DNA of 64,000 bases from a virus (IMGVR_UViG_3300047510_002187:31073-95072); one strand, 5' to 3'; counted from the first letter of the stretch, positions 18,035 through 34,543 are shown. The notes: generated by a model from the sequence alone, not told the origin. Numbers and translations: made by a program.

Positions 18035-18577
18035 ATGACTAATCTCCCTGAATTCGTTCCCTTTCCTAAAATTCCTCGTCTCTATAAAGAATGCGTCATT
18101 ACTGAAAAGATTGACGGAACCAATGGAGTAATTTACATCACCGATGATGGTGAGATGTTTGTTGGTTCTCGTAATCGTTGGTTGAGTGTGGAGAGTGATA
18201 ACTTTGGTTTTCATCGTTGGTCAATGGAGAACAAAGACCAACTTATGAAACTTGGTCCTGGTCGTCATCATGGTGAGTGGTGGGGCAGTGGTATTCAACG
18301 AGGTTATAATCTTACCAAAGGTGAGAAAAGGTTTTCTCTTTTCAATACCAACATCTGGAACGAAGATAATCCACCACCCGAGTGTTGTTCTGTAGTTCCG
18401 GTTCTTTATCAAGGTGAATTTAGTACAAATGCACTTGACGATGTGATGGATAAACTGTGGAATTATGGTTCTGTTGCTTCTCCGGGATTTATGAATGCAG
18501 AAGGTGTAATGGTGTATCATAGTTCTGCTAATCATTACTTCAAAGCACCTTTTGATAAGGAGCATAAAGGACAATGA
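18035..18577 (+). CDS. RNA ligase nucleotidyltransferase-domain protein (Rnl2-like)
   Basis: KIDGTN (motif I KxDGxN), EGVMVY (motif IV), FKAPFDKEHK (motif V); start revised to the ATG after the leader. Confidence 0.6.
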   Translation: MTNLPEFVPFPKIPRLYKECVITEKIDGTNGVIYITDDGEMFVGSRNRWLSVESDNFGFHRWSMENKDQLMKLGPGRHHGEWWGSGIQRGYNLTKGEKRFSLFNTNIWNEDNPPPECCSVVPVLYQGEFSTNALDDVMDKLWNYGSVASPGFMNAEGVMVYHSSANHYFKAPFDKEHKGQ

Positions 18578-18759
18578 AAAACTTTTGGTATAGACGGATA
18601 ATGTGGTCTTGGTGTTTTGATAGTTGGGTTAAACTTATGAAAAATTCACCAGAATTTTATGAGAGTTTTGAATGTGATAGACATTTCTTTTGGTTATATT
18701 TGAATAACTACAATCAACTTTTCGGTACTAATGATGGATTTGGGAATGCAAATGACTGA
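18574..18759 (+). CDS. hypothetical protein
   Basis: ORF track. Confidence 0.35.
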   Translation: MKNFWYRRIMWSWCFDSWVKLMKNSPEFYESFECDRHFFWLYLNNYNQLFGTNDGFGNAND

Positions 18760-18991
18760 AGAACAACAAGAACTTATTATTAACAAACTCAAAGAAATTG
18801 CAAGTGAAAAAACTTGTTATGAAATGTATGGTGAGTTTTATGATGGAATTCCTCAACCAACAACCAGAATTTTTACTGATGGAATTGACTATGGGAAAAT
18901 CAATCTTTGTAGAGAACTTTTGAACCTGTTGGAGACAAAGGTAGAACCGTCACAAGGACATCGCAGGAAAGACCTGGATGTGATAGGATAA
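18752..18991 (+). CDS. hypothetical protein (MTEEQQ)
   Basis: ATGACTGA junction. Confidence 0.35.
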   Translation: MTEEQQELIINKLKEIASEKTCYEMYGEFYDGIPQPTTRIFTDGIDYGKINLCRELLNLLETKVEPSQGHRRKDLDVIG

Positions 18992-19014
18992 TAACACTAA
19001 CGGAGAACCACATT

Positions 19015-19254
19015 ATGCCTCGTTTTAAAGCAACCATTGAATTTAATAGAGCATCAAACGACATTTCACTTGCCGAACATTATCTTAGAGACAAATTGTA
19101 CTTAGGAGCAAATATACACATTTCAAATCTTGAACGACTTTCAATTACTCACGAAGAAGCAATTGCGGAAATTAAAAAATTAATTGATGAAGAAAGTACT
19201 TATGGTTGTGCCGATGCATCTAAAATTAAATCCATTCTTGAAAAGGTGATTTGA
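19015..19254 (+). CDS. hypothetical protein
   Basis: ORF track. Confidence 0.35.
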   Translation: MPRFKATIEFNRASNDISLAEHYLRDKLYLGANIHISNLERLSITHEEAIAEIKKLIDEESTYGCADASKIKSILEKVI

Positions 19255-19493
19255 TTGTGATTAAAGTGCAAAGTTTTTATGAACTCAAGATTGATAATGA
19301 TTTTGATGAAATCACAATCTTGACCGGTGACGACAAACGAACCGCATTTACCATTAAGATTTTGAATGGTCATTCCATTGAAGTTCGGGGAGGATGTATG
19401 GTAAAAGACCAAGGAGTTCTTTATGCTGAACAACTTCAAGTTGCTCCTCGTGCTTCTAATGTGATTACGGTAAGTAAGGTCAAGTATGAATAA
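19251..19493 (+). CDS. hypothetical protein (non-ATG start, TTG/GTG)
   Basis: ORF track; no in-frame ATG near the 5' end. Confidence 0.3.
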   Translation: MIVIKVQSFYELKIDNDFDEITILTGDDKRTAFTIKILNGHSIEVRGGCMVKDQGVLYAEQLQVAPRASNVITVSKVKYE

Positions 19494-19725
19494 GGACGCA
19501 TACTATTCCTGGATTGCCGAGAACGACGAATACCCCGAACATTCTCATAAGTTTATAGTAGGTGTCTATAACAAATATAAAGAAGTTAAAGGTCTTCATC
19601 GTTATTTTGGTCCTTTTGATACTAACAAAGATGCAAGAGTATTCGCAGCAGAATACCGAGACAAATATACAAAACCTGGATTTATCGTAGATATTCGTGT
19701 GTTTCCCTTATGTGAGGTTTTATGA
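19486..19725 (+). CDS. hypothetical protein
   Basis: ORF track. Confidence 0.35.
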   Translation: MNKDAYYSWIAENDEYPEHSHKFIVGVYNKYKEVKGLHRYFGPFDTNKDARVFAAEYRDKYTKPGFIVDIRVFPLCEVL

Positions 19726-19913
19726 GCAGTTACCGTTGGATGACCCCTAAAGATTTGTCTGCTGCTGTAAGAGCACAGAATATTTACAATTCTCGGGTAA
19801 AACGAGGAGAGATTGATACTACAAACATCATAAGAACTGATTATGTGGTGTGTGGTTGTGGTGAAGAAGGTTGTGGATTTATTACTTTTTATAATAAGGT
19901 ATGTGATGTCTAA
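19722..19913 (+). CDS. hypothetical protein
   Basis: ORF track. Confidence 0.35.
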   Translation: MSSYRWMTPKDLSAAVRAQNIYNSRVKRGEIDTTNIIRTDYVVCGCGEEGCGFITFYNKVCDV

Positions 19914-19955
19914 AAACTCAAAAGAACAAGCACAAGAACTTTTTTATTTTAAACT

Positions 19956-20153
19956 ATGAAAATCTATCTGGTTATTGAAAGTGTTGATGTTGGACCTGGG
20001 TTTATTCCAAGTATTATTCACGGAGTATTTAAATCAAAAGAAAATGCAGAGAAACTGCAAAAGAAAGTAAGTGAGGAAATTGCTGAAGAAAGTCCCTATT
20101 GGTTAGAAGCAATAGACCTAATACGTGTTGAAGAAATGGAGTTGCAGGAATGA
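19956..20153 (+). CDS. hypothetical protein
   Basis: ORF track. Confidence 0.35.
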   Translation: MKIYLVIESVDVGPGFIPSIIHGVFKSKENAEKLQKKVSEEIAEESPYWLEAIDLIRVEEMELQE

Positions 20154-20389
20154 GTGACTACGACTTACTCACACCAAATCAAAAAGTTTTAGTATGGATT
20201 TTGGAACATACACCAGAACCAGTTGCAGATAAGATATATGAGTTTTACCTTGGTTTTTATAGATTTCATTATGCATTTCAAGTGTGGAGTGCTATAATGA
20301 CTACGGACTATAAGATTTCAAGTAAAAGAACATTTGGATTGACCTGGTTTGATGAGTTTTATGGTTTATTGAGTAGAAGTTATGACTAA
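20150..20389 (+). CDS. hypothetical protein
   Basis: ORF track. Confidence 0.35.
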   Translation: MSDYDLLTPNQKVLVWILEHTPEPVADKIYEFYLGFYRFHYAFQVWSAIMTTDYKISSKRTFGLTWFDEFYGLLSRSYD

Positions 20390-33198: not shown

Positions 33199-33207
33199 GG
33201 ACACCTT

Positions 33208-33258
33208 CAAAACTGTCACAACCCCCACTTTACATGTCTCCCCAAATGCTCTATGATA
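33208..33258 (+). promoter_or_regulatory. promoter cassette (aaaCTGTCACA ... TATGAT)
   Basis: Box plus -10-like hexamer. Confidence 0.4.
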
Positions 33259-33280
33259 GGTTAGTAAACAAATTGAACCT

Positions 33281-33508
33281 ATGAAGTATCGTATCGTTCG
33301 TCGTGATCAAGCACCTAACGGAAGTCGTAGGGAATGGTATTATGCCCAAATGAATGTGCTTGGTATCTGGATTGATTGTAACTATGATCCTTTTGTAGAT
33401 ACCTGGAATGCTTCAGACGCAGATGTTAAAGAAGTTGAAGAGTGGATTCAAAATAGAATCAAAGGAAATTCTCCTGTTCAACAAGAAGTCGTCAAGACTT
33501 TTGATTGA
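33281..33508 (+). CDS. hypothetical protein
   Basis: ORF track. Confidence 0.35.
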   Translation: MKYRIVRRDQAPNGSRREWYYAQMNVLGIWIDCNYDPFVDTWNASDADVKEVEEWIQNRIKGNSPVQQEVVKTFD

Positions 33509-33516
33509 CACTTTCT

Positions 33517-33561
33517 AAACTGTCACAGGGGGACCTTCAGGGGTCTGCATGTTCCTATCAT
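33517..33561 (+). promoter_or_regulatory. promoter cassette (aaaCTGTCACA, hairpin gggggacc/ggggtc, TATCAT)
   Basis: Box plus -10-like hexamer. Confidence 0.4.
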
Positions 33562-33601
33562 TACAGTTCTAACTTCTCTTGATAAACTTAATATAAAAAC
33601 A

Positions 33602-33739
33602 ATGGACGATCTTCTAAAGTATTCAGAAGGACCATCACTCAATGCAAGTCAACGTGAAGGTATTGTATTCAAGTCTCTGGATAGTGACTTTACTTTTAAG
33701 GCAATCTCTAACAAGTGGTTGTTGAAGAATGACGGTTGA
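33602..33739 (+). pseudogene. RNA ligase C-terminal fragment (motifs IV and V only); probable gene remnant
   Basis: 45-aa ORF ..SQREGIVFKSLDSDFTFKAISNKWLLKNDG* aligns with the C-terminus of gene 18035 (EGVMVYHSSANHYFKAPFDKEHK): EG-hhh-x-S..FKA..K. Confidence 0.4.
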
Positions 33740-33787
33740 GAAACTGGCACACTCTTCCTCTTCACCTGGCACCTGATCCCTTACAAT
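33739..33787 (+). promoter_or_regulatory. promoter cassette (gaaaCTGGCACA ... TACAAT)
   Basis: Upstream of the CCA-adding enzyme gene. Confidence 0.4.
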
Positions 33788-33811
33788 AATCACAGATCAA
33801 CGAGGCAACTC

Positions 33812-34543
33812 ATGTTTCAATTCGCAGAAGTCGGTGGTGCAGTCCGAGACAAGTTTCTTGGTCTGGAATCCAAAGATGTAGATTTTGTTGCGATTCCCGA
33901 AGATACCAGTGTTTTTGTAGATGCAAATGCTGCATTTACTACTCTTTGCATTCATCTGAAACTAAAGGGGTTCAAAGTATTCCTGGAAACTCCTGAGTTC
34001 TTCACTGTTCGGGCACAAGTTCCTGACGGTCATCCTCTGAAGCAACGTACCAATGTTGCTGATTTTGTACTTGCTCGGAAAGATGGTCCGAGTAGTGATG
34101 GTCGGCATCCTGATTTTGTACTTCCTGGTACTCTGATGGATGATCTTCAACGTCGGGATTTCACTGTCAATGCTATGGCAATTCTGGATGGGAAACTGAT
34201 TGATCCTTTCAATGGGTTTGCTGATATTCAGGACGCTATTCTTCGGTTTGTGGGCAATCCTATTGACCGAATCGAAGAAGATGGTTTGAGAGTCATGCGA
34301 GCACTTCGGTTTGCTGTTACCAAAAACTTTGATATTGATGCAGATACTTGGGAAGCAATCAATAGTGACTTTGCAGCAGATATGTTGATGAAAGTCTCTG
34401 TTGAGCGTATTCGTGAGGAACTTGAAAAAATGTTTCTTGCAGATACTCGATGGACTCTACAAATGTTGAATAATATCAACATTAGAGTTCAAGATGCCAT
34501 CTTCCGTGATGGTCTGCGTCTGATGCCAACTCTAAAGAAGTGA
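33812..34543 (+). CDS. tRNA nucleotidyltransferase (CCA-adding enzyme/poly(A) polymerase family) head-domain protein
   Basis: GGAVRDKFLG...DVD plus RRDFTVNAMA, the two hallmark motifs of the class II CCA-adding enzyme head domain; 243 aa (short). Confidence 0.7.
   Translation: MFQFAEVGGAVRDKFLGLESKDVDFVAIPEDTSVFVDANAAFTTLCIHLKLKGFKVFLETPEFFTVRAQVPDGHPLKQRTNVADFVLARKDGPSSDGRHPDFVLPGTLMDDLQRRDFTVNAMAILDGKLIDPFNGFADIQDAILRFVGNPIDRIEEDGLRVMRALRFAVTKNFDIDADTWEAINSDFAADMLMKVSVERIREELEKMFLADTRWTLQMLNNINIRVQDAIFRDGLRLMPTLKK

Follow-up and report, generated by a model that had tools for sequence, protein, structure and literature searches.

The closest described systems are the T4 Pnkp and Rnl1 pathway, which counters the PrrC anticodon nuclease, and the RNA repair sets of jumbo phages, in which Rnl1 and Rnl2 ligases, kinases, HAD phosphatases and CCA-adding enzymes have been described as countering host RNases by RNA repair (Iyer et al. 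2021, PMC7824862). In T4-type phages, promoter/stem-loop (PeSL) cassettes drive modular shuffling (Arbiol et al. 2010; Comeau et al. 2014; PMC2839356, PMC4122927). Here we analyzed a stretch of viral DNA of 64,000 nucleotides (nt), IMGVR_UViG_3300047510_002187:31073-95072 (the window; coordinates count from its first letter), which carries on its + strand a gene for a small RNA-ligase-like protein (lig1, 18035-18577), a gene for a tRNA nucleotidyltransferase of the CCA-adding type (the CCA gene, 33812-34543) and, upstream of the latter, a ligase gene fragment (the fossil, 33545-33739). These genes and their counterparts in related contigs point to a dispersed set of RNA-end repair enzymes in a cyanophage, one member of which, an Rnl5-type ligase, would have become a fossil by cassette deletion; we put the probability of this account at roughly 0.7. 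The set has the same components and the same proposed counter-defence role as those of the jumbo phages, and differs from them in belonging to a cyanophage lineage, in its reshuffling between relatives and in that one member is a fossil.

Protein comparisons assigned the window to a T4-like (Kyanoviridae) jumbo cyanophage with a long run of small early-type gene cassettes: its best protein matches were Synechococcus phages B3 and B23, its Pfam domains included Kyano_Gp96 and the gp25 and gp6 baseplate families, and its open reading frames (ORFs) were mostly small and on the + strand. A DNA-level search of the region between 17 and 36 kb against phage records gave no match, so comparisons were made at the protein level or against metagenomic contigs; the comparison loci were the B23 locus (L001) and ten IMG/VR loci around the CCA gene. 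B23 has only the CCA gene and the Toprim gene in common with the window in syntenic order, and is uninformative on the fossil.

Analysis of contigs that overlap the left edge of the window revealed the genes that a repair pathway of the T4 kind comprises. Two contigs (L020 and L021), which very likely derive from the same genome, are 100% identical to window positions 1-4211 and extend 8.9 kb to the left, where an Rnl1-family ligase, a P-loop kinase and a calcineurin-type metallophosphoesterase are encoded in a row (L020:4534-6999, corresponding to -4408 to -1943 relative to the window start). The ligase (4.5e-35, plus T4_Rnl1_C at 3e-9) and the kinase (AAA_33, 1.5e-23) are 67% and 73% identical, respectively, to their counterparts in a cassette of a related contig (L007, described below). 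The phosphoesterase (Metallophos, 1.3e-7) had a sole PDB match, 4j6o, which we take to be the phosphatase domain of the bacterial Pnkp of Clostridium thermocellum. The polynucleotide kinase that the earlier note had proposed to look for elsewhere in the genome thus has a candidate, and kinase, 3'-phosphoesterase and Rnl1-type ligase are brought together in one genome by way of these contigs; inside the window, a Pfam search of 92 further ORFs and about 38 larger ones found no kinase, phosphoesterase, RtcB, 2H phosphoesterase or RlaP. As in T4, then, the predicted set holds an Rnl1 with T4_Rnl1_C, a P-loop kinase and a phosphoesterase. In contrast to T4, kinase and phosphatase are encoded separately, the latter being a metallophosphoesterase and not a HAD domain, and the set also contains a minimal ligase and a CCA-type enzyme, both of which T4 lacks. 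Judged from its gene content, the genome has the full healing-and-sealing chemistry in rearranged form, and the lost Rnl5 is one of three ligases.

The related contigs show repair genes beside the CCA gene in several arrangements. In L007 and L008, a cassette of 4.7 kb comprises genes for Rnl5, a T4-type Rnl1 (with T4_Rnl1_C), an AAA_33 kinase, the CCA enzyme, a Toprim protein and a PNKP-type HAD phosphatase (HAD_PNKP), the last of which recalls the HAD domain of T4 Pnkp; this intact Rnl5-Rnl1-kinase-CCA-Toprim-phosphatase order in L007 occupies the position that the fossil holds upstream of the CCA gene in the window. A HAD_PNKP-like ORF lies directly upstream of the CCA gene (380 nt) in L011. 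In L004, lig1, a 64-aa (amino acid) ORF, an SPFH gene, the CCA gene and the Toprim gene are found within 4.3 kb, with lig1 2.4 kb upstream of the CCA gene; compared with this contig, the window has an extra 12.6 kb of cassettes between lig1 and the 64-aa ORF and, between SPFH and CCA, an extra 1.4 kb with an endonuclease-like ORF, a 75-aa ORF (orf75) and the fossil. In L015 and L016, an Rnl1 gene lies at a distance of about 1 kb from lig1, and HAD_PNKP at 8 kb. The RNA repair toolkit proposed in the earlier note therefore gained comparative support from L007/L008, L011 and L004 and from the Rnl1, kinase and phosphoesterase genes left of the window, whereas the window genes themselves are 15 kb apart and form no operon. 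Other genes near the CCA gene in L005, L006, L009, L011, L012 and L013, one ORF in each, encode DUF2828/DUF7788 proteins, a metallophosphoesterase, ThyX and HNH endonucleases; DUF2828 is, we presume, TROVE/Ro-like.

The product of lig1 is a stand-alone protein of 180 aa, identified by Pfam, PHROG and fold comparison as an ATP-dependent RNA-ligase-like nucleotidyltransferase domain. The ligase motifs named in the earlier note were all read in its translation, namely motif I (KIDGTN, with K25), motif IV (EGVMVY, E156-G157) and motif V (FKAPFDKEHK, K170 and K178), together with GEWWG (E81) as motif III and RFSLFN (F103) as motif IIIa. K25, E81, F103, E156-G157, K170 and K178 were invariant in 30 homologues (55-81% identity), and K25, within EKIDGTN, aligns with K35 of T4 Rnl2 (EKIHGTN). 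Profile matches were obtained to Pfam RNA_ligase (PF09414, 2.2e-12) and phrog_548 (5e-28, profile positions 3-218 of 341). The single sequence gave no match in a phmmer search of the PDB; the family profile had T4 Rnl2 as its best match, a weak one (E 0.026) covering the N-terminal half, with motifs I, III and IIIa aligned. An AlphaFold2 (AF2) model (predicted local distance difference test, pLDDT, 85.5; predicted template modelling score, pTM, 0.77) retrieved NgrRnl (6vt5) and T4 Rnl2 (2hvr) as top matches in Foldseek (E 1.5e-5, probability 1.0, TM 0.55-0.58), followed at lower rank by kinetoplastid REL1, archaeal Rnl3 and DNA ligases. The lysine-adenylate fold, on which the earlier note had made its reading of this protein depend, is thus present in the model.

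Comparison with the known ligase families revealed how far this protein is reduced. It shares fold and motif set with the adenylyltransferase domain of T4 Rnl2 (residues 1-249; PDB 1s68, 2hvq), but is about 65 residues shorter than that domain, has no C-terminal domain, is only about 20% identical and falls below the Rnl2 equivalog threshold. Its C-terminus lies 2 residues past motif V, without an OB or C-terminal accessory domain. It does not belong to Rnl2 proper, having neither the all-helical C-terminal domain nor a match to TIGR02307, nor to Rnl5, with no PHA02142 match and 20.9 bits to TIGR02306 against a cut-off of 151. No conserved gene able to supply the missing domain in trans was found beside lig1. 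The family is large, with at least 8000 clusters in a large protein search, nearly all of 175-200 aa with PF09414 as sole domain, and a characterised member of this 180-aa clade was not found in the literature. Sequence and model together place lig1, an intact nucleotidyltransferase with the ligase fold, in the nick-sealing Rnl2/Rnl5 clade, as a form cut down to the catalytic domain. The ATG at 18035 is its likely start, since the homologues begin at the equivalent Met and the TTG at 17999, considered as an alternative start and rejected, falls within the T-run of the upstream promoter/stem-loop motif. This promoter-like motif (17955-18012, + strand) consists of GACACTT-N3-AAACCGTCACA, a short hairpin, the T-run and a -10-like TGTTATA.

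The CCA gene encodes a protein of 243 aa with the head and neck of a class II tRNA nucleotidyltransferase (PolyA_pol head, PF01743, 1.6e-17; RNA-binding neck, PF12627, 1.7e-8). Both motifs given for it in the earlier note, GGAVRD and RRDFTVNAMA, are present, along with DVD and EEDGLRVMRALRF. It shares head and neck with the class II CCA-adding enzymes of Geobacillus (1miv) and Planococcus (6ibp), and its motifs are those of class II: A (GGAVRD...DVD), B (RRD) and D (EDxxRxxRAxRF); in the neck, the nucleotide-templating motif D (EDxxR) is represented by EEDGLRVMRALRF, which aligns with EEDALRMLRAIRF of 6ibp. The protein matched phrog_24229 (2e-50) and CCA-adding enzymes in the PDB (down to 2.7e-25), and is 73% identical to the 'CCA tRNA nucleotidyltransferase' of B3/B23. 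The PDB alignments end at about residue 245-256 of the 400-420-aa enzymes, where the body domain begins; thus the body and tail of about 150-180 residues that hold the tRNA elbow are missing, and the best NCBIfam score was 130 bits against a cut-off of 290. Its length is the same as that of the phage 'tRNA nucleotidyltransferase' family profile (phrog_24229/2244; 245 positions). By its sequence, this protein is a short-form tRNA nucleotidyltransferase of class II in which no catalytic or nucleotide-templating motif is missing. CCA, CC-only and A-only specificity are not separable on this basis; its matches include poly(A) polymerases and A-adding enzymes.

A stand-alone Toprim protein of 181 aa is encoded 6 nt downstream of the CCA gene (34550-35095, + strand), and matches positions 148-333 of 435 of phrog_849 'DNA primase' (1.4e-33) and, weakly, Toprim_2. 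Of the ten IMG/VR loci, nine have a Toprim gene 0-2.4 kb downstream of the CCA gene, as does the B23 locus; in L011, the 1.9 kb of sequence that follows CCA gave no Toprim match. The match covers only the catalytic part of phage primases, with no zinc-finger region. The protein may be either a primase fragment or an RNA-processing nuclease.

The fossil comprises the last 64 codons and the stop codon of an Rnl5-type (NgrRnl/DraRnl) gene. The earlier note had taken a 45-aa ORF within it (33602-33739) for the 3' remnant of a second ligase gene carrying motifs IV-V and had proposed a profile comparison; the ORF indeed matches the end of phrog_968 'RNA ligase' (positions 345-393 of 398, E 5.5e-9) and, with 68% identity, that of the S-CREM1 ligase, so that its origin stands while its length does not. 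Searches by tblastn with the S-CREM1 ligase (E 5e-16 over 33548-33730) and with the L007 ligase (73% identity over 64 aa at 33545-33736, L007 residues 286-349) showed that the similarity reaches 57 nt (18-19 codons) before the ATG, extending the fossil to 64 codons; at the nt level, it is 81% identical to the 3' end of the L007 ligase gene. The fossil retains REGIVFK (motif IV) and FKAISNK (motif V), and lacks motifs I-IIIa, the catalytic lysine and the N-terminal OB module of Rnl5 enzymes; without that lysine it cannot be an enzyme. Further decayed fragments, which the earlier note had proposed to look for, were not found: tblastn across the 64 kb gave no further piece of the fossil's ligase (E<0.01; the paralogous lig1 aside), including in and around the endonuclease-like ORF, and a search of all six window frames for Rnl5, Rnl1, kinase and HAD remnants was likewise negative.

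The type of the parent gene was revealed by the intact orthologue of the fossil in L007 and L008, a protein of 349 aa with a PHA02142 OB domain and RNA_ligase, which matches NgrRnl of Naegleria (2.7e-103) and passes TIGR02306 (RNA_lig_DRB0094). The parent is therefore assigned to the nick-sealing Rnl5 ligases (Deinococcus DraRnl and Naegleria NgrRnl; TIGR02306, PHA02142 OB plus RNA_ligase), to whose last 64 residues the fossil is orthologous; Rnl2, also considered as parent type, was ruled out by this Rnl5-type (DRB0094/NgrRnl) orthologue. From these alignments, the fossil is what is left, at the 3' end, of an Rnl5 ligase gene that has lost its first ~285 codons.

Analysis of the intergenic sequences showed that the edge of the fossil coincides with a repeated motif, GACACTT-N3-AAACYGKCACA, usually followed by a short hairpin and, about 30 nt on, a TATA-like box. 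The motif lies upstream of many + strand ORFs, including lig1, orf75 and the CCA gene, and occurs in all related contigs; examples in the window are 980-1000, 3711-3731, 4242-4262, 16577-16597, 17955-17985, 24061-24081, 30933-30953, 33200-33220, 33507-33527, 33731-33751 and 36344-36364. A 14-mer version of it had 11 matches in the window against 1.6 expected. The motif probably serves both as an early promoter/stem-loop cassette and as a site of recombination. Like the PeSLs of T4-type phages, it is a repeated intergenic hairpin with a -10-like box before small ORFs and coincides with insertion/deletion boundaries between relatives; unlike the coliphage PeSLs with their sigma-70 -35 hexamer, it has the GACACTT-N3-AAACYGKCACA block, which is promoter-like by sequence.

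Around the fossil, a truncated copy of this element (33506-33545, + strand; TGACACTTTCTAAACTGTCACAGGGGGACCTTCAGG..., 36-40 nt) is 89-94% identical to L004:5920-5956 and L005:5266-5299, where the counterparts run on into a complete hairpin, T-run and TATA-like box. In the window, ligase homology to L007 begins instead at TGCATGTTCC, which places the junction at about 33543-33546, at the 3' edge of the TGACACTTTCTAAACTGTCACAGGGGGACCTTCAGG element. A further copy precedes the CCA gene (33730-33795, + strand; GACGGTTGAGAAACTGGCACA ... TTCACC-18-AATAAT) and overlaps the last codons of the fossil, just as, in L007, a motif of the same class overlaps the intact ligase's stop codon. We suggest that the Rnl5 copy was made redundant and then lost by a deletion that would have begun in the stem-loop of this copy's own promoter cassette and ended at codon ~285; by analogy, such a deletion fits the cassette shuffling at promoter/stem-loop motifs of T4-type phages. 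Exact searches for the junction sequence in viral and metagenome collections found no match, so the deletion cannot be dated from close relatives. The ratio of nonsynonymous to synonymous substitution (dN/dS) relative to L007 was 0.135 for the fossil, 0.109 for the CCA gene and 0.091 for the Toprim gene, with synonymous sites saturated (dS 1.5); the low ratio is most simply explained if, compared with the divergence of these phages, the deletion happened recently.

The earlier note had suggested that the truncation may be due to a nearby gene, described as an AT-rich GIY-YIG homing-endonuclease insertion. This free-standing ORF of 221 aa (32533-33198, + strand) did prove homing-endonuclease-like (phrog_314 'homing endonuclease', 9e-9, positions 178-358 of 574, its sole match), whereas its AT-richness is only mild (33.5% GC, against 36.7% for the window) and the GIY-YIG class was not confirmed by profile: since no Pfam match was found at E<=1 and none in NCBIfam, the class depends on an 'IY...YYG' motif (IY-x10-YYG), in which the conserved following Arg is not evident. 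The ORF looks mobile, being absent beside the CCA gene in all 10 of the 10 relatives and present at other loci, namely 5.6 kb downstream of CCA in L005, at about 180 kb in B3/B23 (two places per record) and in S-SRM01. It lies only 350 nt from the junction, and double-strand-break repair can delete flanking DNA. That its insertion or cleavage destroyed the 5' part of the ligase gene is nonetheless very unlikely. Intact orf75 (33281-33508, + strand) with its own promoter-like motif (33200-33257; motif at 33210, promoter-like site 33229-33257) and the conserved element at 33506-33545 intervene before the junction, and the break falls within that element. On the other side of the endonuclease-like ORF, a terminator hairpin with a promoter-like element follows the SPFH gene (32445-32511, + strand; terminator-like site 32469-32489, promoter-like site 32481-32509) and is 84% identical to L005:5015-5076. 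In L005, the two elements that flank the endonuclease and orf75 block in the window are 190 nt apart with no ligase between them, which argues that the insertion site was separate from the ligase gene; no ligase fragments were found in or around the ORF either. Since orf75 and a promoter-like site separate the junction from the endonuclease-like ORF, and given the L005 layout, the anatomy of the locus favors a deletion anchored in the promoter cassette over one caused by the endonuclease. It is still less likely, and in our view highly improbable, that the fragment of 45-64 aa has been retained as a functional small protein, such as a decoy or subunit. This reading is helped by an open frame of 76 codons (33509-33736), which runs up to the stop codon in 33737-33739 and includes an ATG at 33602, and by a dN/dS resembling those of the intact neighbors. 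Yet a recent deletion yields the same low ratio when dS is saturated; motifs IV and V are two core beta-strand motifs of the nucleotidyltransferase fold and no independent domain; no promoter-like site follows the truncated element; and the junction sequence is without an exact match in the two public collections. Short fossil-like ORFs in metagenomes turned out to be the second halves of full-length genes split by frameshifts, and so give no sign of a conserved stand-alone peptide.

As to function, RNA, mainly tRNA, would be cut by host ribonuclease defences or toxins, whereupon the kinase would convert 5'-OH to 5'-phosphate and the phosphoesterase 2',3'-cyclic or 3'-phosphate to 3'-OH; Rnl1 would then seal single-stranded loops and lig1 nicks in duplex regions, while the nucleotidyltransferase would rebuild trimmed 3'-CCA ends and finish phage tRNAs whose genes lack CCA. 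A counter-defence against tRNA-cleaving toxins is suggested by the T4 Pnkp/Rnl1-versus-PrrC precedent and by the published jumbo-phage RNA repair survey. A serious and non-exclusive alternative, which we consider possible though not probable, is that the CCA-type enzyme mainly matures the phage's own tRNAs, anti-defence being secondary and the proximity of ligases reflecting cassette shuffling in a variable region. It has to be taken seriously because tRNA-Leu genes near the CCA gene in B23 and L005 do not encode CCA (post-discriminator TTA at L001:3204-3289 and TAA at L005:4081-4169); tRNA-rich cyanophages such as S-CBWM1 also carry a CCA-type enzyme, and gene order around CCA is highly mosaic. 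However, a host whose own tRNA genes lack CCA must itself have a CCA-adding enzyme, no tRNA gene was found in the window or in the 8.9 kb to its left, and repair genes stand beside CCA in three independent arrangements (L007, L011 and L004). The two roles are compatible. Unlikely, by comparison, is a lig1 that serves no tRNA or RNA repair, acting instead on another substrate (DNA nicks, RNA-DNA hybrids or a phage-specific RNA) or as an adenylyltransferase only; the missing substrate-binding accessory domain, the failure of the Rnl2 and DRB0094 equivalog models, the non-conserved immediate neighbors and the DNA ligases among the lower-rank fold matches would suit such a role, but RNA ligases (T4 Rnl2, NgrRnl, REL1 and archaeal Rnl3) account for all of the best matches by sequence and fold, and in L004, L014 and L015/L016 lig1 has Rnl1, HAD_PNKP, Metallophos or CCA genes nearby. 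A bolder proposal, which we regard as a long shot, makes the ~180-aa ligase a new minimal RNA ligase class that, with the CCA-type enzyme and Toprim, would repair tRNA damage needing no end healing. Its substrates might then be, for example, cuts by metal-dependent PIN/VapC-type toxins that leave 3'-OH/5'-phosphate ends, as well as 3'-end trimming or aberrant extension, with Toprim as an RNase clearing the end before CCA is rebuilt.

Several observations weigh against a dispersed repair set with an Rnl5 fossil. The repair genes are dispersed over about 38 kb, with lig1 and the CCA gene 15 kb apart, and because of this scatter their co-function is deduced from relatives and not from an operon. 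The identity of L020 and L021 with this genome is limited to the 4.2-kb overlap. The CCA protein has no tRNA-binding body or tail domains and falls below every NCBIfam equivalog cut-off. It is established that T4 Rnl2 and DraRnl require accessory domains for full nick sealing (PMC1807946); lig1 is without such domains and may need a partner or act otherwise. The dN/dS of the fossil is as low as that of its intact neighbors, which fits a very recent deletion and is no proof that the fragment is dead. We know of no host nuclease (PrrC-like) for this phage.

Other features of the region were noted in passing. The frame of orf75 continues into that of the fossil (33281-33739) with one TGA (33506-33508) between them, probably by coincidence; orf75 matched no Pfam or PHROG family, and its homologue in L019 (46% identity) stands in a different context and says nothing about the ligase. 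We also considered whether the endonuclease-like ORF lies in a group I intron; an Rfam scan of the window matched no RNA family. Further homing-endonuclease-like genes lie at 39388-40014, 40008-40841 (- strand) and 52008-52487; among these, one (39388-40014) shares the C-terminal DNA-binding region of the ORF at 32533-33198, one is a clear GIY-YIG (1.3e-10) and one an HNH endonuclease. Antitoxin-like proteins include a 90-aa ORF (35710-35982), 1.2 kb downstream of the CCA gene and 50% identical to a TacA-type antitoxin of S-CREM1, and a protein with a MazE-antitoxin-like C-terminus on the left-hand contig (L020:1312-1923); further Pfam matches in small window ORFs were to an Xre/MbcA/ParS-type antitoxin domain and a dCMP deaminase. 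Five proteins are encoded in an island of higher GC (27308-30944), at 41-48% compared with about 28-36% in its surroundings: a small ThiS-like protein, a 362-aa protein without matches, a 131-aa protein, a JAB/MPN protein with an HSHxxxxxxxSxxD motif that matches PRTRC system protein A, and a ThiF/E1-like protein matching the E1 part of CBASS E1-E2 and BilD models; it looks like a PRTRC-type ubiquitin-like conjugation cassette in a phage. A second high-GC island (44000-51400, up to 61% GC), very unlike the rest of the phage in composition, includes a GP88-family protein (44098-44853, 1e-42) and a DUF6011 protein (50535-51356). An ORF of 651 aa (24900-26855) in a very AT-rich stretch (28% GC) had no Pfam or PADLOC match.

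Current understanding is unchanged by this locus, since the toolkit concept has already been published for jumbo phages; what may hold a surprise is confined to the 180-aa ligase clade and the CCA-Toprim pair. The locus flags two abundant, uncharacterised enzyme forms, the 180-aa ligase domain and the 243-aa head-and-neck tRNA nucleotidyltransferase. It also offers what appears to be a clean, datable example of the assembly and erosion of phage RNA-repair sets: next to the CCA-Toprim pair, one relative has a complete repair cassette, another just one phosphatase gene and the window a ligase fossil, the Rnl1-kinase pair being relocated by about 37 kb in this genome.

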